Shown one piece after another: positions 1-14,376 of a DNA stretch of 64,000 nucleotides. Origin of the DNA: Hyphomicrobiales bacterium. GTDB lineage: Bacteria > Pseudomonadota > Alphaproteobacteria > Rhizobiales > JACESI01. Location of the stretch: assembly GCA_039964305.1 (NCBI GenBank), contig JBDVXS010000141.1, positions 2,147 through 66,146 of the forward strand, written 5' to 3'. Both the position numbers and the translations under genes were made by a program. Numbering within the stretch: the stretch's first letter is position 1; the number at the start of each line of letters is the position of its first letter. The notes under the pieces were generated by a model. That model was not told where the DNA came from. It was given only the letters and a program-made list of their open reading frames with translations, and did not search any database.

Positions 1-1226
1 TCGATACGTTGAAAGTGCACACCATTTTGGTGATACCCTTCGACAAGCCGTTTCGCCAGTACCGGAATTTTTGCCATGACATCAACAGCCTTTGGGGTGC
101 CAGACCAAATATGCACCGATAAACCGTAAAGGCTTGCTAGTGCTTCGAGATCAGTTCTTTGAAACTCCCGAAGTTCAAAGAAGTTTGCATTCTCGATCTG
201 GGCAATAGGCTTTCTTGCTGAAAATACGGCAACCCTTAGATTTGTATGATCACGCAACATAGCATTAATCTCTGCGATGATCTTCCGCTGTTCATTGGAG
301 GTAACTCTGTTAAGACCGTCCAGTACCAACAGCATTCCTTGTTCATCTATCAAACGCTTTAGGTTCGAAGCCATAGCTGCAGGATTATGCGCCGCTAAAC
401 GTGCCACCGTGAAATCAGTTACGCTTTGACCAGTTGAACAAAGCTCAGGTAGAGCTATTGCCACCGGCAGTGGAGCTGACTGATCGGCATTTCGTCGTTG
501 CAACAACTGGACACACAATGCGTTAGCAAAAGTCGTCTTTCCAAACCCTGATTTTGCAATAACAACTGAGTTGATCTTTAGATTGGTGAGTTCTAAAGGG
601 CAAAGCTCATGAAGTTCAGATGGGCCAATAGGCGACACTTTGCGTTCAAGAATTGGTCTTCCTTTGAGCAATCGACTTAATTCTGCGCTCTGGTATGCTG
701 AAAAATTTCGAACAACCTGATTAAAGTCTTTAACCGTTAGACTTTTAGCAAGGTGCACTATCGCCTCTTTTGATAGCAAGGCTTCCAACTCATCGCGTTT
801 TACCGCGATCTGCCCCTCGGAAACCTCGAGAAGTAGATTACAGGCATTCGTCGATTGCAACTGCCAGAGCTCTATGCATGAACCATTACATAACAAGACT
901 ATAGGAGTGCGGTGATTATGAGCATAGCTCTCTGCTTGACGTTTGCCGCTTTCGACCGTGTATTCAGCGCTCTTCAGCTCGATTGTAATCAATGACGTAG
1001 TTTCGTCATATGGCTCGCCACTAAAAACGAAATAGTCGGCGCGTGATCTAGTATTTCTCCGTCCTTGCTGAATGGTGAAATCGACAGACGCTTCAGATTT
1101 AACATCCTGCCCGCAATCATACCCCAGTGCAGCAAGCATTGGTAATATGAGCTTAGTGCCAACTTCGCTCTCATTCGCAAAGGTAAGATGATCACACGTC
1201 GCCCAGAAATCGGTCAAGAAGTGCAA
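1..1226 (-). CDS. PD-(D/E)xK nuclease-like N-terminal domain fused to a NACHT-type P-loop NTPase (STAND family). Only the N-terminal ~400 aa are present; the gene continues past the left edge
   Basis: My own translation of a minus frame that is absent from the ORF track because it runs off the window. It reads ...FANESEVGTKLILPMLAALGYD...RADYFVFSGEPYDETTSLITIELKS (restriction-endonuclease-like D...ExK core, HsdR-N-like). This is followed by Walker A VVIAKSGFGKTTFAN, Walker B MLLVLDGLNRV and VAVFSARKP, matching the NACHT GKT / LDGLxE / TSRP pattern. No stop from 1226 down to position 1. Start uncertain: TTG at 1226 or 1217, or ATG at 1139. Confidence 0.65.
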   Translation of the reverse strand, partial: MHFLTDFWATCDHLTFANESEVGTKLILPMLAALGYDCGQDVKSEASVDFTIQQGRRNTRSRADYFVFSGEPYDETTSLITIELKSAEYTVESGKRQAESYAHNHRTPIVLLCNGSCIELWQLQSTNACNLLLEVSEGQIAVKRDELEALLSKEAIVHLAKSLTVKDFNQVVRNFSAYQSAELSRLLKGRPILERKVSPIGPSELHELCPLELTNLKINSVVIAKSGFGKTTFANALCVQLLQRRNADQSAPLPVAIALPELCSTGQSVTDFTVARLAAHNPAAMASNLKRLIDEQGMLLVLDGLNRVTSNEQRKIIAEINAMLRDHTNLRVAVFSARKPIAQIENANFFELREFQRTDLEALASLYGLSVHIWSGTPKAVDVMAKIPVLAKRLVEGYHQNGVHFQRI

Positions 1227-1780
1227 ACCTTGTCTAGCGCTCGATATACAGATGCCCGCCCAACACCCAGCTTCTTCGCAATAGCAGTTGCACCCATTCC
1301 ACTATCTTTGAGCGCTCTTATTTCATCCGCACGATTACGTACTGTTGGTTTACGGCCTTTGTATTTACCGTCGTCCTTCGCTTTCTTGATGCCCTCCCGT
1401 TGACGTTCGAGCATAATTTCACGTTCGAACTGCGCCATAGCTCCAAACATTGTGAGTATCAGCATTCCGTTAGGTGACGAGGTATCAATCTCACTCCCAC
1501 CAAAATCGAGTATCCTTAACCCAACGCCCTTGTCTTTAAGCTGATCTACAATCTTGAGTAGGTCACGAGTTGATCGAGCCAATCGATCTAACTTAGTAAT
1601 GACAAGCGTGTCACCGTCCCTCACAAACTCCAATGCGTTTGTAAGCTCATCACGTTGACCAATGGAGGACACCTGTTCTTTGAAAACCTTCTCAATACCA
1701 AGTGCTTTCAGGTCACGGATTTGAGCTTCAAATCCCGCTTCCTGATCAGCGGTGGATGTTCGTGCATATCCGATAAGCAT
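1214..1780 (-). CDS. serine recombinase (resolvase/invertase family) with C-terminal HTH
   Basis: N-terminus MLIGYARTSTADQ carries the catalytic-serine motif YARxSTxDQ. LVITKLDRLARS, MFGAMAQFEREIMLERQREGI and the C-terminal HTH GATAIAKKLGVGRASVYRAL are typical of Tn3/Hin-type resolvases. Confidence 0.9.
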   Translation of the reverse strand: MLIGYARTSTADQEAGFEAQIRDLKALGIEKVFKEQVSSIGQRDELTNALEFVRDGDTLVITKLDRLARSTRDLLKIVDQLKDKGVGLRILDFGGSEIDTSSPNGMLILTMFGAMAQFEREIMLERQREGIKKAKDDGKYKGRKPTVRNRADEIRALKDSGMGATAIAKKLGVGRASVYRALDKVCTS

Positions 1781-1792
1781 ATCTACGCCTAT

Positions 1793-1886
1793 TGTCTCGT
1801 TAGGGTCTAGACTTTATACCATTTTGTCTCACAAATGCAACAAGTATTTATATGAGACACATACCGGAAATGACTGAGACGTCTCA
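1793..1886. promoter_or_regulatory. res-like cluster of TGTCTC(A) recombinase half-sites upstream of the serine recombinase gene
   Basis: TGTCTC at 1793. TGTCTCA at 1825 faces TGAGACA at 1853, a 35-bp inverted-repeat site. A 12-bp palindrome TGAGACGTCTCA sits at 1875-1886, and GTCTAGAC at 1805-1812. The half-sites match the TGTCY core of resolvase binding sites and lie 13-106 nt upstream of the recombinase ATG. Confidence 0.5.
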
Positions 1887-1982
1887 ATGCACCTAGGTCA
1901 TTTGAGGCTCTGAATGAGAGTGGCATTTCATTGAATACCTAAATACGATATAGTGAGTTGATGGTGGCGGGAGGTGGTCAAT

Positions 1983-2702
1983 ATGAATGAAAATGCAAAA
2001 TTAGCTAAAAGTTGTACTCTACTACTAATCTCATTTCCGTTATTGGCGCTGCTAATGTTTGTTTTTTCGATTAAACAAACAGTGGCTAGTGGAACTCCAA
2101 TAGTGCTGGACATCAGTGGAAACGGAAAAATAGATATCACAGGGCACACTACAACTAGGCAGAAGCTTTATACATTGTTTTCGATAGAGCAATATGTGAA
2201 ATTCGACATCTTCAACCGAGGCGAGATGTCACAAATTGATTGGATTGCACCTGATACAGACGCTTTCTTGATTGATCTAAGAGAAGGACACCCATCAGGA
2301 AATTTAACGGGAAAGCACCTTTTTGGGACGGCAGGATTTTCATCGAATTCAGATGACGAAGGCTTCGAATTTGAAAATGGTTTCGAAAAACTGGCTACAC
2401 TTGATTTAAATCAAGACGGCAAGCTGAGCGGAGACGAATTGACCGGATTAGCCCTTTGGAAAGATGACGGTGATGCTCTTTTCGAACCTAACGAACACGT
2501 CAAGTTGTCTGACCATAAGATAGTTTCCATTTCAGTTACCTTTGAAAAATCTTCTGGGGCGTACGGTGCGCCTAAATTGACTTCTGAAGCGACGACGGAA
2601 AGTAGTTCTTCGATATACGTTGAAGACATTTGGTTTATGACCCCGAACGACGTGGCTCGCTATGATAGAATTTTCGGGCGCTTTTTCGCGGCTCTTAGGT
2701 GA
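1983..2702 (+). CDS. secreted or membrane-anchored protein with DxDxDG-type calcium-binding motifs
   Basis: GGGAGG RBS 8 nt before the ATG at 1983 (the track starts at GTG 1974). It has a hydrophobic N-terminal segment. VLDISGNGKIDITG, KHLFGT and LDLNQDGKLSGDELTGLALWKDDGD resemble the Ca-binding modules of large RTX-type adhesins. Confidence 0.5.
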   Translation: MNENAKLAKSCTLLLISFPLLALLMFVFSIKQTVASGTPIVLDISGNGKIDITGHTTTRQKLYTLFSIEQYVKFDIFNRGEMSQIDWIAPDTDAFLIDLREGHPSGNLTGKHLFGTAGFSSNSDDEGFEFENGFEKLATLDLNQDGKLSGDELTGLALWKDDGDALFEPNEHVKLSDHKIVSISVTFEKSSGAYGAPKLTSEATTESSSSIYVEDIWFMTPNDVARYDRIFGRFFAALR

Positions 2703-5784: not shown

Positions 5785-6294
5785 CTAACGGACTATCTGA
5801 CAAGCTAAATCACTCGTGCTATTTTCGACGACGCTGATTTTGACGCCGCTAGTGCGTTGGCTGAATGACCCTTGCTGAATTGCGGCACCAAATATAATGC
5901 CCACTGTGCGAATTGCATCTTCCATCTTTGTTCCAGTAAGCGTTGCGAAGGCTAATGCGCACATCTCAACATTGTCAGTCATAGGCACGCGTGTGAGTGG
6001 GCTTACTTTGACAATGCCTTTGCCGTGAACGATCACATCGAAGGGTTCGTGTGTAAGTACGCAGTAATTGTCCTCTCGGCAAAACTTGCCATTGATGGTC
6101 AGAGCTTGCGCTTCACGACCATAATAACTTTTCAGATTAGCTGCGAGTTGCTCGGTAATTACTGGATTGTTCTTAGTCACTTGGTTGCTGCTAGCCGATG
6201 CCGTGCTGACGGCAGCCCCGAAGGTTAGACAAAGAACGATGGTGTTAAATAATACGCTTGCGCGATTTTGTTTGGTTGATGTGCTCATGGTCAC
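5785..6294 (-). CDS. secreted hypothetical protein
   Basis: N-terminal signal peptide (VLFNTIVLCLTFGAAVSTASA). 169 aa, no recognisable family. First gene of the minus-strand block 6294-4218. Confidence 0.5.
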   Translation of the reverse strand: MTMSTSTKQNRASVLFNTIVLCLTFGAAVSTASASSNQVTKNNPVITEQLAANLKSYYGREAQALTINGKFCREDNYCVLTHEPFDVIVHGKGIVKVSPLTRVPMTDNVEMCALAFATLTGTKMEDAIRTVGIIFGAAIQQGSFSQRTSGVKISVVENSTSDLACQIVR

Positions 6295-6718: not shown

Positions 6719-8176
6719 TTATGCCTCAAAATCAGCGTCACGGGCTATGTCTGTTACAGGTTGATGATTAGCTAGGATACTTGCTGCTTGATTGTAGGGC
6801 GGTGTTAGGCGAACAGTTCTTCCATTGCGAACAACTCGCTCAACAACACCTCTACGTACTAGCCTTCGAATAGGGTTCCGCATCTCATCATAGGGAACAG
6901 AGGTATAACTGCGGTTGTTGATCAGGAGTTCTAACAACAACTGCCGTATGCGTCTGTTTGGCGCAGCAAGGACAATTTCTTCTACAAGCCTGTAAGCGGG
7001 ATGATAGGTCTCGTTATGTTCGTCTTGAACTAGGAGTTCTCCGAGGCTTCTAGCATGAATTGCTGCTTGCTCTCGGCATGTACTAAGTAACTCTAATAAG
7101 CGCTCAATAGCTCCTGCGCCATCAAACGTGTGTGCAGGGCCATTTGTAGAGCGATGGCGGAAGTCACGAGTAAATTCAAAGCGCACGCTGTCATTGGTCT
7201 TTGGATAGAGCTTTGCGGTCAACCCTCGTTCTACACGCGTGCTTAGACAAGGGACATTCAGTTCTGTCTCCAAATCGCTTGTGACATTGGAATAGATACG
7301 ACGATTGCTTTCTGCTCCCAAGGCGCGGAAACGAGGCTCAACCTGCATTAGGTCATGTATCGGTTCTGCGCTGTCTAACGTCCAATAGGTTTCCACCTGT
7401 TTGATGTTGAAGTAAGTGCTGATACTGACATCAACGTGATGCCCGACGTAAGCAACTTCCCGCTGTGCCCTTCGCAGTATGGTGTCGAGTTGCTGAAGGG
7501 ACTGCCTGACATAATGATCTGAGAACTCAGAGAAGGATTGCCGTCTCAGCGCTGAATAATGATCGTTGTGATAGAATACATTGTCATCTGTAGGGTTGAT
7601 GGGACGGGTATTACCAAATTCAGGCAATTCTCTCGTATGCATTGAGATGTCACTTGCACCGGGGTTCAACGTCACCCTGCGCCCAGTTCGTAAGGGCTGA
7701 TGAATAAAGGCTCGTGTTGGGTTCAATGCAATTTCCGCATGGCCCATCATTTGGATAATATTGCTACCACGAACAGGATCATCGGCACCCGGCATCGCGC
7801 CAATACCGTCTTGATCTACAATCCAATCGTCAGGAGAGTATCCAAGGCCCGCTCTTTCGTGAGGTGTTCCGACGCTTGTCCGTTTGAACACAAATTTGCC
7901 ATCTATGAGTGGAGCGCCGACGACGGCACGATTACAACGTAAGCGAGAAGCAAAAGTGGCCTCTGCACGTATCAAAGGGGACTCACCATCTCTTATTGAG
8001 AATAATGGTACGTTTTCTGTGTCATCACCTTGAACACCACATAGGATGGACAAGTAACCAATGTAGGCAGCTATATCGCTCTCAACACCAGCTATATTGA
8101 TCCGGCAAGCATGAAGAAGTATTCTGTCGTGATGGCCAGTACTCGCTTGGAGCAAGCCTTGATTATCGGAAAACAT
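6719..8176 (-). CDS. hypothetical 485-aa island protein (possible replication-initiation-like function; weak)
   Basis: Long uninterrupted ORF adjacent to the integrase. GLTAKLYPKTNDSVRFEFTRDF weakly resembles the Rep_trans-type xYdK...xRxE motif. The Arg-rich C-terminus (RRLVRRGVVERVVRNGRTVRL) looks like a winged helix. The function call is inference only. Confidence 0.5.
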   Translation of the reverse strand: MFSDNQGLLQASTGHHDRILLHACRINIAGVESDIAAYIGYLSILCGVQGDDTENVPLFSIRDGESPLIRAEATFASRLRCNRAVVGAPLIDGKFVFKRTSVGTPHERAGLGYSPDDWIVDQDGIGAMPGADDPVRGSNIIQMMGHAEIALNPTRAFIHQPLRTGRRVTLNPGASDISMHTRELPEFGNTRPINPTDDNVFYHNDHYSALRRQSFSEFSDHYVRQSLQQLDTILRRAQREVAYVGHHVDVSISTYFNIKQVETYWTLDSAEPIHDLMQVEPRFRALGAESNRRIYSNVTSDLETELNVPCLSTRVERGLTAKLYPKTNDSVRFEFTRDFRHRSTNGPAHTFDGAGAIERLLELLSTCREQAAIHARSLGELLVQDEHNETYHPAYRLVEEIVLAAPNRRIRQLLLELLINNRSYTSVPYDEMRNPIRRLVRRGVVERVVRNGRTVRLTPPYNQAASILANHQPVTDIARDADFEA

Positions 8177-10273: not shown

Positions 10274-10350
10274 TGGTAGCGGGAGAGGGACTTGAACCCC
10301 CGACACGCGGATTATGATTCCGCTGCTCTAACCACCTGAGCTACCCCGCC
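10274..10350 (-). tRNA. tRNA-Met (anticodon CAU; the lysidine-modified Ile2 alternative is not excluded)
   Basis: Reverse complement is GGCGGGGTAGCTCAGGTGGTTAGAGCAGCGGAATCATAATCCGCGTGTCGGGGGTTCAAGTCCCTCTCCCGCTACCA. It folds as a cloverleaf: D stem GCTC/GAGC, anticodon stem GCGGA/TCCGC with loop AUCAUAA, T arm GGGGG-TTCAAGT-CCCTC, and an encoded CCA. Confidence 0.9.
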
Positions 10351-10435: not shown

Positions 10436-11326
10436 TCAACGCCAAAGCCATGCAGCGCCGCGAACACCGGAGGAATCACCGTGATGAGCGCGCAAAATTG
10501 GGGTCGTAAAACCGTCGCTAAACACATGATCTTTGATGAGGTTTGGGAGATCGCTATAAAGCTGATCGATATTGCTCATACCACCACCCAAAACAATCAC
10601 ATCAGGATCAATGAGGTTCACAATTGTTGAAAGGCCGCGTGCAAGCCTGTCGCAATAGGCTTCATAACAGGCCCTACTTTCAGCCGTATTCATTACCAAA
10701 ATTTCTGATACGGGTTGCAAACTTGCCCCTGCAGTTCGCGCCTTAAAGTCACGGGAGAACCCAGTGCCTGAAATATAGGTCTCAAGACATCCACGCCGGC
10801 CGCACCAGCATTCATGGCCTGGGTATTCTTCAGCCGTCATAAAGGGTAGAGGCGTGTGACCAAACTCTCCGGCTATTCCTTGCGCACCAGCAAGTGCTTT
10901 GCCATCAATTGTAATGCCAGAACCACAGCCAGTCCCTAAGATGATACCTGCAACAATACTCTTGCCCGCCCCTGCCCCGTCCACGGCTTCTGAGACGGTA
11001 AAGCAATTGGCGTCGTTTTGTATGCGGACTTCGCGTTGAAGCTTAGTTTCAAGGTCGGCTTTTAAATTGCGCCCATTAAGCCATGTTGAGTTGGCGTTCT
11101 TCACCAGCCCTGTGGCAGGCGAAATGGTGCCAGGAATACCAAACCCAATATGTGCTGCTTCACCCAATTGAGCTTCACACAGGTCCACAAGGCTGACTGC
11201 TGCATCAACGCAGGCTTCATAGTCATTTTGTGGCGTTGCAATTCTTTTGCGCAGCAAAGGAGAGCCATCATCGGCCAAGGCAATGATTTCGATCTTTGTG
11301 CCACCCCAATCAATTCCGATCAGCAT
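10436..11326 (-). CDS. ROK family sugar kinase (NagK/Mak-like)
   Basis: MLIGIDWGGTKIE is the N-terminal ATP-binding motif. ILGTGCGSG is present, as is the ROK zinc motif HECWCGRRGCLE. Confidence 0.8.
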   Translation of the reverse strand: MLIGIDWGGTKIEIIALADDGSPLLRKRIATPQNDYEACVDAAVSLVDLCEAQLGEAAHIGFGIPGTISPATGLVKNANSTWLNGRNLKADLETKLQREVRIQNDANCFTVSEAVDGAGAGKSIVAGIILGTGCGSGITIDGKALAGAQGIAGEFGHTPLPFMTAEEYPGHECWCGRRGCLETYISGTGFSRDFKARTAGASLQPVSEILVMNTAESRACYEAYCDRLARGLSTIVNLIDPDVIVLGGGMSNIDQLYSDLPNLIKDHVFSDGFTTPILRAHHGDSSGVRGAAWLWR

Positions 11327-11334
11327 GGCAAACC

Positions 11335-12531
11335 TTACGCAGAAATGGATAGGAGTGTTGTCATTTGCGCTTCGATCTCAGCAGATTTTTCTGCCTTCTC
11401 AATCCAACCGCCACCGAGCACGCGCGTATCTGTTGCCTCATCTTCATAAAAGACACAAGCTTGACCAGGGGAAACGCCCGCTTCACCGTCATGCAGCACC
11501 ACTTTGACGCTCTCTTCATCTTGATAGATGGAGGCCTCCATCGGCGGACGTGTGGAACGAACTTTCACGAAGAATGGCAGCGGTTTTTCAGCTGAATAGG
11601 TTGTAAGTGGCACATCGCCCAACCAATTCACATCACGCAAACAGACAGTGTGGGTGACCAGAGCATCAGCAGGGCCAACAATCACGGCGTTTTTCTCACG
11701 ATCAAGCTTCACCACATAAAGCGGATCACCAACCGACACACGAAGCCCTCGGCGCTGACCAATTGTATAATGGATGATGCCCTCATGCTGACCCAGAACA
11801 CGGCCATCAAGATGGATAATATCACCAGGCTTTGCCGCATCAGGGCGAAGTTTCAAAATAAGGTCCGCATATTTTCCGTCTGGCACGAAGCAAATATCTT
11901 GGCTGTCTGGTTTCGCAGCAACGGCAAGGCCGTAACGCTCAGCCAATTCGCGGGTTTCTTCTTTGGTGAGATCACCCAAAGGAAAGCGCAAATAATCAAG
12001 CTGCTCTTGTGTTGTAGCAAAAAGGAAATAGCTTTGATCACGGCCATGATCAGCAGGACGATAAAACCCGTAATGACCGCTGTTTGAGCCCTTAATCAAT
12101 TCGCGAGAACGAATATAGTGGCCTGTCGCCAACACGTCAGCGCCCAGCTCTTTTGCTGTTGCCAATAAATCTTTGAATTTCACTGTTTGATTGCACGAAA
12201 TACAAGGCACAGGCGTTTCGCCGCGCAAATAGCTTTCCGCAAATTCATCAATCACGCTGTCGCGAAATCGGCTTTCATAATCAAGCACATAATGAGGGAT
12301 ATTAAGCGCTTCAGCAACACGGCGCGCATCGTGAATATCTTGGCCTGCACAACAAGCGCCTTTTTTCTGAATAGCCGCGCCATGATCATAGAGCTGCAGC
12401 GTAATGCCAATAACCTCATAGCCTTCGTCATGCAGCATGCCGGCAACAACCGAGGAATCGACCCCACCCGACATGGCAACAACCACGCGGGTATCTTCCG
12501 GACGCTTCGCAATGCCGAGGCTATTTATCAT
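11335..12531 (-). CDS. mnmA: tRNA 2-thiouridine(34) synthase
   Basis: The PP-loop [12 protein letters not shown], the CCAGQD and CISCN cysteines, and the overall 398-aa length are typical of MnmA/TrmU. Confidence 0.9.
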
Positions 12532-12649
12532 TGTTTTTTTCCTGAATTTTCGCCGTTTTACGCGGCGAGGTCATTCTGGTCAATATAAGACAGCCATTCC
12601 GACTTTTAAATAGGGACCCATATGACGGGTGGGTCAAACTTGCCCGCAC

Positions 12650-12662
12650 GGCAATATTTGCC
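12650..12662. promoter_or_regulatory. 13-bp palindrome GGCAAtatTTGCC, candidate enhancer (FlbD/ftr-like) for the fliK promoter
   Basis: A perfect 5+3+5 dyad about 88 nt upstream of the sigma-54 promoter motif. The same GGCAA-N3-TTGCC dyad recurs upstream of flhA, and a degenerate copy lies upstream of fliF. Confidence 0.35.
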
Positions 12663-12737
12663 TGCTAAATCCATAAAACGCTGCCCTACAAAATTTTTAT
12701 CCCATTGTATTCATTGGGTTTTTTAAAATCATCAAGC

Positions 12738-12753
12738 TGGCATGACCCTTGCT
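12738..12753 (+). promoter_or_regulatory. sigma-54 (-24/-12) promoter upstream of fliK-flgD
   Basis: TGGCATgacccTTGCT compared with the consensus TGGCAC-N5-TTGCW has one mismatch and correct GG/GC spacing. It lies 46 nt upstream of the fliK start. A sigma-54 activator (flbD) is encoded nearby. Confidence 0.6.
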
Positions 12754-12798
12754 AATCATTATGTAAATGATTGGCCTAACTATGGATAAGATTGACCA

Positions 12799-14376
12799 GT
12801 GACACAGTTCCCAAACACCACCACATCGCTCCAATTCGATCCACGCAGCACGACTGGCGAGGTCAACACCTTTCGACGTGACAACCAGATTGATGCTGGA
12901 TCGGCTGAAAATAGTCGTTTTGCCAGAACACTTGATGACAGCAACAGTCAATCTAATGTCCGCTCTGAAGTAGAGCGTGATAATACGCAAGCGCCTGTTC
13001 GCGACGGTTCGCCTAGAGAGAACGAAGTTCGCAATGACCAAGCGGAAAATACAGCACCAGAAAATACTGTCGAACAAGACGCAAATTCAGATCTTGGCAA
13101 TGATGAGACAGAGACTGACTCATTAGAAACGGCAACCAGCAGCGAGCAAGACACAACGCAACAAAGTAACGTCGCTTTGTTTGATCCATTCTCGCTTATT
13201 GAACAAGTAGCGAATGAAACAACACCAGCGGGCACGAATGAAACAGCAACAGATGGTGCTTTGCTTGCTTCAACTGATGGCTCTTTACTTACTTCAACCG
13301 CTATTGCTGGCTTTTTACCAAGTGGTGAAACTGCTGGCGGTGTTGCAACGGCGCAGCAAAACCTCGCCACAACACTGCAAGGTGCATCTAACCCGCTTCA
13401 AGCCAGTCCGTTAGGCCAAAATCTTGCGCCACAGGCTGATAATGCGCTTGCGCAGGCTAATGGTATTGCCGCAAACGTTGCAGGTGAAGCGTTTGACAAT
13501 GTACTGACCAACCAGCTCAGCAATACTGGCGCACAAACAACAGCAACCAGTGCACAAGCCTTAGCTGGCAATTTGCCAACGAACCTTCAACAAACGCCTG
13601 CCGCATCCAGCCTTCAACCCACTCAACTAAGTGATCTGGTGCAGCAAAATGCAGGCGCTGCTAGTGCAGATGGTGAACAGCTTAACTCTTTTTCAAATAC
13701 CAATCAGTCGTCAGCAACACCATCCCAACAATTGGCATCGCTGCTCGCTGGCACAGGTAACGCCGATGCGCCTTTGCCAAATCTTGGTCAATTGACGAAT
13801 GGACCGCTTCAGCAAGCAACGCAAGCGCCCGTTCAACAAGCAGCACAGCCGCTTGCACAATTTGCTAATGCCGCTTTTGCAAATGACACACTGCCAGCTT
13901 TTACAGCGCAGATTTCACGTAATTTCGCCGCTGGGCAAGATTCTTTTAACGTAAGACTAAACCCATCTGAGTTGGGCCGTGTTGATGTGCGTTTGATTAC
14001 CAATGAAGACGGTTCAGTGAATACGCAAATTCGGGTTGAACGTTCTGAAACGCTTGATCTATTCCAACGCGATATTCGCGCTCTTGAACGCACGCTTCAA
14101 CAATCTGGTTTGAAACTGGGCTCTGAGGGTATCGATTTATCCCTTAAAGATAATGGCGCCGATCAAGGTGGCAACAATCAAGCCTTTGACAATGACTTTG
14201 ATGGTCAAGGCGAGCAAGCTCAAAACAGCGACCCAGCTTTGGAGGTAGAAGATGCCAACCAGCAATTAGACAATGACGGTCTTCTCGTTGACGACCTCGC
14301 AGCCGATGTCCCTTTAGATCAGGTGCAAACCATCTATGCCAGATATCAGCCCGGCCAACTGAACATAAGAGTATAA
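12799..14376 (+). CDS. fliK: flagellar hook-length control protein
   Basis: Long Q/A/T/N-rich low-complexity body with the C-terminal Flg_hook-type domain (FNVRLNPSELGRVDVRLITNEDGSVNTQIRVERSETLDLFQRDIRALERTLQQSGLKL). It sits directly upstream of flgD. GTG start. Confidence 0.75.
   Translation: MTQFPNTTTSLQFDPRSTTGEVNTFRRDNQIDAGSAENSRFARTLDDSNSQSNVRSEVERDNTQAPVRDGSPRENEVRNDQAENTAPENTVEQDANSDLGNDETETDSLETATSSEQDTTQQSNVALFDPFSLIEQVANETTPAGTNETATDGALLASTDGSLLTSTAIAGFLPSGETAGGVATAQQNLATTLQGASNPLQASPLGQNLAPQADNALAQANGIAANVAGEAFDNVLTNQLSNTGAQTTATSAQALAGNLPTNLQQTPAASSLQPTQLSDLVQQNAGAASADGEQLNSFSNTNQSSATPSQQLASLLAGTGNADAPLPNLGQLTNGPLQQATQAPVQQAAQPLAQFANAAFANDTLPAFTAQISRNFAAGQDSFNVRLNPSELGRVDVRLITNEDGSVNTQIRVERSETLDLFQRDIRALERTLQQSGLKLGSEGIDLSLKDNGADQGGNNQAFDNDFDGQGEQAQNSDPALEVEDANQQLDNDGLLVDDLAADVPLDQVQTIYARYQPGQLNIRV

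Follow-up and report, generated by a model that had tools for sequence, protein, structure and literature searches.

A nuclease-NACHT protein encoded behind a res-resolvase unit in a tRNA-Met island of a Hyphomicrobiales bacterium

Does a gene that starts on the stop codon of a serine resolvase gene encode a bacterial immune protein, and is the recombinase in front of it more than a neighbour? The question was raised by a stretch of 64,000 nucleotides (nt) from a Hyphomicrobiales bacterium (contig JBDVXS010000141.1 of assembly GCA_039964305.1), hereafter called the window. An initial annotation had described there a truncated minus-strand gene for a PD-(D/E)xK nuclease joined to a NACHT module, the architecture of bacterial proteins related to nucleotide-binding leucine-rich repeat (NLR) receptors. 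The explanation favoured here, which we hold to be likely, is a single-chain NLR-like immune protein that is the last cargo of an island at a tRNA-Met gene and stands in an apparent two-gene operon behind a resolvase and its recombination site (res). By analogy with characterised systems, the nuclease-NACHT protein is very probably an anti-phage sensor.

The nuclease-NACHT protein and its family

The reading frame of the NLR-like gene (frame -1) is open from position 1217 to base 1 (405 codons) and then runs off the window, with about 1663 nt more past the left edge. A profile search recovered its own full-length product as NCBI MEP1443928.1 (P0156; 959 amino acids, aa), which is 100% identical to the translated open reading frame (ORF) of the window and comes from a contig of 69,676 bp. 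The gene is thus intact, and 554 residues of its product lie outside the window. The entry is annotated as 'MAG: type I restriction enzyme HsdR N-terminal domain-containing protein [Hyphomicrobiales bacterium]', where MAG denotes a metagenome-assembled genome. All the motifs that the initial annotation had quoted (ADYFVF, IELK, GFGKTT, LVLDGLN and FSARKP) were found at their positions, which is far beyond chance, and the assignment of the truncated gene to a nuclease followed by a NACHT module was borne out by the full protein. The layout is tripartite, with an N-terminal effector, the NACHT module and a C-terminal domain; the winged-helix His483 and all residues beyond it lie outside the window.

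Searches of the 405-aa fragment against the hidden Markov models of both families gave a match to Pfam HSDR_N_2 over the cut-off (aa 40-123, E-value 6e-6, 26.7 bits; cut-off 25) and a match to Pfam NACHT just under it (aa 219-360, E-value 1.6e-5, 25.3 bits; cut-off 26.7), next to weaker matches to generic P-loop families. In two relatives NACHT passes the cut-off, with 40.8 bits for P0012 and 27.2 bits for P0020, and the sequence profile weakly reaches NLRC4. For the N-terminus, NCBIfam returned the EcoAI-type HsdR N-terminus, and the HsdR fragment 3h1t was retrieved weakly by profile search and also by Foldseek. Residues D61, E80, K82, Q94 and Y98 of the nuclease are invariant in 25-26 family members, including the QxxxY motif of HsdR, as are S223, G224, G226, K227, D300 and H483 of the NTPase. 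The family consensus retains G301, which does not vary at all in the six-sequence subclade alignment (A2). These residues agree with the Walker A pattern GxxGxGK[ST] and with a Walker B aspartate followed by a tiny residue, which is reportedly a NACHT signature (Koonin & Aravind, 2000). The N-terminal position of HSDR_N_2 and the intact catalytic residues in the family would fit an effector.

An AlphaFold2 model of P0156 was built with 25 homologues (predicted local distance difference test, pLDDT, 83.8; predicted template modelling score, pTM, 0.72). Comparison with the PDB by Foldseek clearly favoured animal NACHT proteins, with NOD2 (6e-8), NLRC4, NLRP3, NLRP9 and NAIP5 in ranks 1-26 (E-values 6e-8 to 1e-5). 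Behind these came 3h1t (1e-5) and Avs4 (2e-5), and lower still ORC/Cdc6, CED-4 and plant NLRs. In the model, the NTPase fold is that of a NACHT module with HD1, WHD and HD2. The Foldseek matches to NLRs, with NACHT also the best-scoring NTPase family of Pfam, support NACHT and not another AAA family.

The initial annotation had placed a C-terminal repeat or sensor domain beyond the left edge of the window. A long C-terminal part does exist there, and it is modelled as an alpha/beta domain, not a repeat domain. Its 404 residues modelled alone (pLDDT 86, pTM 0.86) gave a mixed alpha/beta, non-repetitive fold, for which Foldseek found no match in the PDB (best E-value 0.7) or among predicted viral structures (BFVD). 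Pfam had no match to the C-terminus of P0156 even at an E-value of 10, nor to full-length relatives past about residue 365, that is over their last ~400-550 residues. P0158 is the closest allele of P0156. The two are 91-98% identical in the nuclease, NACHT and HD2 parts and only 69.5% in the C-terminal domain, where P0158 carries a 31-residue insertion at about aa 636-646. This is the pattern that would be expected of a sensor, and recombination could produce the same. In comparison with the more distant relative P0001, the C-terminal domain is the best-conserved part of the protein.

Relatives were collected by an exhaustive HMMER search, a word-indexed protein search having given none. It returned 379 proteins, with 98 clusters below 1e-30 and a best E-value of 2e-109. 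Nearly all are 915-965 aa long (a family of ~940 aa) and align from their first residues, and the full-length ones all contain HSDR_N_2 and NACHT. A search for related loci with the subclade alignment added one genome locus and nine metagenome loci. One subclade member, P0004 (L008, 8001-9466), is apparently a decayed copy, being split into ORFs of 294 aa and 194 aa on a relaxase-bearing element and ending beside an rve (integrase-core) fragment. At least ~100 clusters (50% identity) carry only the name 'HsdR N-terminal domain-containing protein' and are missed by the PADLOC models. In our reading they are nuclease-NACHT proteins of the NLR-like type, whose C-terminal domain is a candidate for a new sensor type. 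Homologues in cultured hosts (on pAt of Agrobacterium fabrum and on a plasmid of Phaeobacter inhibens; the Agrobacterium and Phaeobacter proteins are WP_174019556.1 and WP_260083227.1) make experiments feasible.

The resolvase, its res site and the junction with the NLR-like gene

The protein encoded upstream is a serine resolvase (Pfam Resolvase, 5e-40) with a C-terminal HTH_7 domain (2e-9), the active-site region YARTSTADQ (R7, S9) and the motif DRLARS. Its PDB matches are the Gin invertase and the gamma-delta/Tn3 resolvases (~1e-26), and its closest relatives, ~60% identical, are found on Methylobacterium and Xylella plasmids. Directly upstream of the gene lies a cluster of half-sites (Table 1) with five exact GAGAC/GTCTC pentamers and one variant. 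Against an expectation of 0.15 per 120 nt, the cluster is the unique maximum of the 64 kb. All half-sites are kept in the closest related locus, L001, and the spacers between them have diverged. The Methylobacterium plasmid resolvases are preceded by half-sites of equal number and spacing with the hexamer GTTCCA/TGGAAC in place of GTCTCA/TGAGAC. Since the layout is shared while the hexamer co-varies, there is strong evidence for a genuine three-subsite res. The size and layout of subsite I match those of the gamma-delta/Tn3 res. The two hexamers in one layout look like natural switching of the recognition hexamer within one resolvase lineage.

The start of the NLR-like gene called by the Prokaryotic Genome Annotation Pipeline (PGAP) is TTG 1217, so that the product begins with MTDFWATC. 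An alternative in-frame TTG is present at 1226-1224, and 5' of it the frame contains no ATG or GTG before an in-frame stop. TTG 1217 is favoured because the N-termini of the family mostly read M-x-[D/E]-F-W, which M-T-D-F-W fits; the predicted start at the resolvase stop was thus retained. The resulting TTGA overlap is identical in L001-L003, and together with the surrounding 98 nt it is identical in the related island L001. The closest relative is 93% identical over the N-terminal 405 aa and has the same 4-nt overlap. Between the two genes no terminator-like site and, by consensus scan, no above-chance promoter was detected. Because the overlap is identical in the closest relative, co-transcription of resolvase and NLR-like gene, already suspected in the initial annotation, is likely. 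Translational coupling is plausible because the Shine-Dalgarno-like element upstream of TTG 1217, AAGG, is weak and 10 nt away.

A mosaic pattern was found at the same junction. Between the window and L001, res and the resolvase gene (1253-1912) differ at ~20% of nucleotides and the first 0.8 kb of the NLR-like gene (413-1252) at ~3%. The change occurs near 1250, ~35 nt upstream of the NLR start, which suggests that a recent recombination or gene conversion had its breakpoint there. At 412-353, 19 differences from L001 lie densely together. An earlier formulation, in which res, resolvase and NLR-like gene form one block more conserved than the integrase gene (89% vs 82%), was dropped in view of this mosaic (resolvase ~80%, NLR 5' part ~97%).

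Following the Tn3 and gamma-delta precedent, transcription would start inside res and the resolvase would repress its own gene. The NLR-like protein would be translated at a low level from the TTG overlapping the resolvase stop. By analogy with bNACHT25/32 and Avs proteins, its C-terminal domain would detect a phage-derived or infection-induced cue, upon which the NACHT module would exchange nucleotide and oligomerise. Oligomerisation would assemble the nuclease domains, DNA would be degraded, and the infection would be halted or the infected cell killed.

Table 1. Features of the locus, with the plasmid res sites used for comparison (window positions unless another sequence is named)
Feature	Position	Strand	Remarks
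tRNA-Met	10274-10350	-	ARAGORN
Tyrosine integrase	10238-8283	-	Pfam Phage_integrase
res site	1794..1908	-	six GyCTCA/TGAGAC half-sites in 115 bp upstream of the resolvase
res subsite I	1908-1881		28-bp imperfect palindrome, centre TA at 1895/1894
Further res half-sites	1880-1876, 1858-1854, 1830-1826, 1813-1806, 1798-1794
Serine resolvase ORF	1780..1214	-	188 aa; ATG start; stop TGA 1216-1214
TTGA overlap	1214..1217	-	resolvase TGA 1216-1214, NLR-like gene TTG 1217-1215; from the sequence
Nuclease-NACHT (NLR-like) gene, 5' part	1..1217	-	1217 nt, 405 of 959 codons; starts with TTG 1217
HsdR-N-type PD-(D/E)xK nuclease domain, aa 1-135	813..1217	-	Pfam HSDR_N_2; NCBIfam; 3h1t
Nuclease catalytic residues	D61 1037-1035; E80 980-978; K82 974-972	-	plus Q94/Y98; family alignment
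NACHT module, ~aa 194-555, part in the window	1..640	-	Pfam NACHT; Foldseek
Walker A, GFGKTT	548-531	-	motif in the NACHT module
Walker B, LVLDG, D300	320-318	-	motif in the NACHT module
C-terminal domain	aa 556-940 of P0156, outside the window		alpha/beta model
Methylobacterium plasmid res sites	L030 3075-3213; L031 3858-4000; L032 3868-4000		compared with the res of the window

The island and the competing explanations

The island extends from ~10273 leftward past base 1. In L001, tRNA-Met and integrase are followed by three unknown genes and then by resolvase, NLR-like gene and a 17-nt repeat. The 3' end of the tRNA (CCCTCTCCCGCTACCAA) recurs there ~105 nt after the NLR stop and marks attR, which makes L001 an integrative island of ~9.3 kb with the NLR-like gene last. 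The island of the window appears to be of the same kind, with a predicted length of ~12 kb and the NLR-like gene as its last cargo. From 5784 to 1900 it carries other cargo (~3.9 kb), which L001 lacks. Left of subsite I, the islands of the window and L001 are unrelated, divergently transcribed genes included. This cargo switch at subsite I is consistent with res-mediated exchange.

The surroundings of the relatives indicate defence and mobility. P0153 is adjoined by a type I restriction-modification system inside a large-serine-recombinase island, P0154 by a Metallophos-NACHT protein (a second NACHT) and P0052 by OLD-TOPRIM and UvrD genes (Gabija-like). The Phaeobacter inhibens plasmid relative is cargo of a Tn7-like element together with SIR2, DUF87 and Drt5, the relative on Agrobacterium fabrum pAt is accompanied by SIR2 and an AAA ATPase, and P0001 by a Lit-type peptidase U49, ArdA, ParB and ParE. 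L021 also lies on a Tn7-like element, and L019 has only housekeeping genes around it.

Several observations weigh against the favoured explanation. PADLOC (2023 models) gave no match to its NLR or Avs/AVAST models and only weak N-terminal matches to restriction endonuclease (REase) and methyltransferase models. NACHT (PF05729), the top NTPase family, reaches 25.3 and 23.4 bits against a gathering threshold of 26.7. The subclade of P0156 reads DGLNR where most family members read DGFDR, with an asparagine two positions after G301, and ATP hydrolysis may be altered in it. The weakness of AAGG as a ribosome-binding signal counts here as well. At L010 resolvase and NLR-like gene are 22 nt apart and do not overlap. 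No adjacent resolvase was found for P0001, P0002, P0004, a Rhizobiaceae MAG locus and all more distant family loci, and adjacency was seen in only two of ~18 lineages examined, both in the subclade; the pairing is lineage-specific and could be incidental. The promoter of the operon probably lies inside res, but this is our own reading, the consensus scan having given chance-level matches.

With regard to the protein, the notion that it is no immune sensor but an HsdR-related restriction fragment or a TniB-like ATPase of a mobile element draws on its PGAP name, on weak AAA_22 and TniB Pfam matches in relatives and on two homologues on Tn7-like elements. We rate it as very improbable. P0156 in its full 959 aa contains no ResIII, DEAD or Helicase_C domain of Pfam, and hence none of these helicase/translocase parts; no hsdM or hsdS (methylase or specificity) partners were found among the island ORFs scanned. 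The modelled NTPase fold, with its HD1, WHD and HD2, also speaks against it, and the conserved length of ~940 aa with alignment over the full length points to a complete single-chain protein. A role in the service of the island rather than the host, by addiction or by exclusion of plasmids or rival elements and not of phages, would suit the mobile-element settings of the family (tRNA island, Tn7-like transposons, plasmids, and an element resembling integrative and conjugative elements with ParE and ArdA), and no homologues were found in phage genomes. It is nevertheless improbable in our judgement, given that the characterised proteins of the REase-NACHT and Avs types respond to phage proteins and that the neighbours are classical anti-phage systems.

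With regard to the recombinase, the initial annotation had considered that it could couple inversion to defence expression. The protein is indeed as similar to the Gin invertase as to gamma-delta resolvase, and inversion is among the hypotheses listed for small serine recombinases next to defence genes (Andersen et al., 2026; PMC13552941). A phase-variation switch of the NLR-like gene is nevertheless hardly credible here. The res is of the three-subsite resolvase type common to plasmid resolvases, a second copy was found neither in the 64-kb window nor in the whole L001 island, and no convincing inverted repeats flank the region of res, promoter and gene. Since there is a single res copy and no such repeats, inversion or excision in cis is unsupported, and the proposed link to inversion was abandoned. 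The resolvase would instead act as the res-by-res recombination or resolution enzyme of a mobile element. In another alternative, res and resolvase are backbone of the island, inherited from a plasmid-like ancestor for multimer resolution, and the NLR-like gene is independent cargo that lies downstream by chance and has no link to them in regulation or mobility. Between the islands the resolvase gene is about as diverged as the integrase gene (~80% vs 82% nt identity), and the NLR 5' part, at 97%, evolves separately; most family members have no neighbouring resolvase, and the nearest relatives of the resolvase are ordinary plasmid resolvases. On the other side, co-expression would be forced by the 4-nt overlap of stop and start and the lack of promoter- or terminator-like signals between the genes. 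Moreover, the 46%-identical NLR-like protein P0166 is also encoded behind a co-oriented resolvase, which ends 22 nt before its TTG start and is only 34% identical to that of the window, so that no recent copy is involved. There is also statistical documentation that small serine recombinases are associated with defence genes (PMC13552941). An incidental adjacency is accordingly a possibility that we take seriously and yet think rather unlikely.

The favoured operon could be extended to a dual-purpose platform, an idea that we offer as tentative and doubtful. By binding to res subsites II/III, the resolvase would hold down the sole promoter of a toxic NLR-like gene, the TTG overlapping the resolvase stop would tie NLR dosage to resolvase dosage, and cargo would be traded at subsite I with other res-bearing replicons. 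Such a platform would explain why two related islands become unrelated exactly at subsite I. If general, it would offer a mechanism for the as yet unexplained pairing of anti-phage genes with small serine recombinases.

The remaining genes of the region were recorded as follows. Within the cargo that is particular to the window, the ORF at 1974-2702 (+) encodes a 242-aa protein whose N-terminus is hydrophobic and which has a weak motif of the EF-hand type, the ORF at 3383-2532 (-) a multi-pass hydrophobic protein of 283 aa, and the overlapping ORFs at 5762-5211 and 5232-4675 (-) proteins of 183 aa and 185 aa; none of them gave a significant Pfam match. Two genes common to L001 belong to no Pfam family, one at 6719-8176 (-; 485 aa, ~35% aa similarity) and one at 5785-6294 (-; 169 aa, 71% nt identity). 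Just beyond tRNA-Met, 10436-14376 holds genes for a ROK-family kinase, the tRNA 2-thiouridylase MnmA and a FliK-like hook-length protein. These housekeeping genes are taken as the chromosomal side of the island junction.

Comparison with known NLR-like, restriction and resolvase systems

The nearest characterised proteins by architecture are bNACHT25 and bNACHT32 (clade 6; Kibby et al., 2023; Conte et al., 2025), which have the layout REase-NACHT-NCH1. Defence by these proteins depends on the nuclease residue D48 (PMC12169576), and sensing is mediated by DnaJ (PMC12169576; bioRxiv 10.1101/2022.07.19.500537). Like P0156, they are single chains with a DNase of the REase fold, a NACHT module and a non-repeat C-terminus. 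The conserved nuclease aspartate (D48 there, D61 in P0156) and the winged-helix histidine are shared as well, and a common logic would be expected, in which sensing activates the NACHT module and leads to DNA degradation. The two differ in the nuclease (Mrr_cat vs HSDR_N_2), in the C-terminus (a helical NCH1 of 170 aa, PF22728, vs an unmatched alpha/beta domain of ~400 aa), in length (753 aa for a bNACHT25-like protein vs 959 aa) and in hosts (Enterobacteria vs Alphaproteobacteria and metagenomes). The bNACHT25-like gene used for comparison was found on an Enterobacter kobei plasmid (L033) by means of the N-terminal sequence in the published S3 Table; its 753-aa product contains Mrr_cat, NACHT and NCH1 (NCH1 6.5e-37). 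An hhalign comparison of the family profile (A3) with this protein aligned 79 columns around the P-loop only, with a probability of 5%. Membership of P0156 in the bNACHT25/32 clade was rejected, as NCH1 was not matched and only the P-loop aligned.

The Avs/AVAST proteins (Gao et al., 2020, 2022) share with P0156 the order effector, STAND NTPase and sensor, the use of nuclease effectors and the occurrence in defence islands. The fold of Avs4 matches distantly (E-value 2e-5), and the NTPase of P0156 is closer to animal NACHT proteins. P0156 differs in that no AVAST model matches it, its sensor is not of the tetratricopeptide-repeat type and its size is about half. A recent preprint (Lee et al., 2026) distinguishes 589 STAND clades and 684 sensor clusters and includes HSDR_N_2 among the STAND-associated domains. 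A supplementary table (bioRxiv 10.64898/2026.01.04.697583), in its dictionary of domains for STAND proteins, classes pfam13588 HSDR_N_2 as 'Sensor' and COG4096 HsdR as 'Effector'.

The res-resolvase part resembles the res-tnpR units of Tn3 and gamma-delta with their embedded passenger or toxin-antitoxin genes (Lima-Mendez et al., 2020; PMC7157771). In both, the resolvase gene has upstream of it a three-subsite res of ~115 bp that is flanked by divergent genes, and downstream of it a passenger gene. Unlike in those units, TnpA and terminal inverted repeats are missing here, and the whole lies within a tRNA island with a tyrosine integrase.

Joint transcription with anti-phage genes is often predicted for small serine recombinases (Andersen et al., 2026; PMC13552941). 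The RADS criterion of that study is a same-strand ORF starting within 100 bp of the recombinase end, and the NLR start found here overlaps the resolvase stop by 4 nt. In the founding case, the Enterococcus faecalis bicistron EF_B0058/EF_B0059, the small serine recombinase gene likewise lies upstream in the same orientation and is predicted to share a transcript with the defence gene; the recombinase proved dispensable for defence (PMC13552941). The present locus differs in its NACHT cargo, which is unmentioned in that study, and in its complete single-copy res, which can be defined here; the likeness of the resolvase to EF_B0058 is at family level. The locus combines an uncharacterised REase-NACHT family with a recombinase-defence pair, both of kinds already known, and a defined single res beside such a pair makes the role of the recombinase experimentally approachable.

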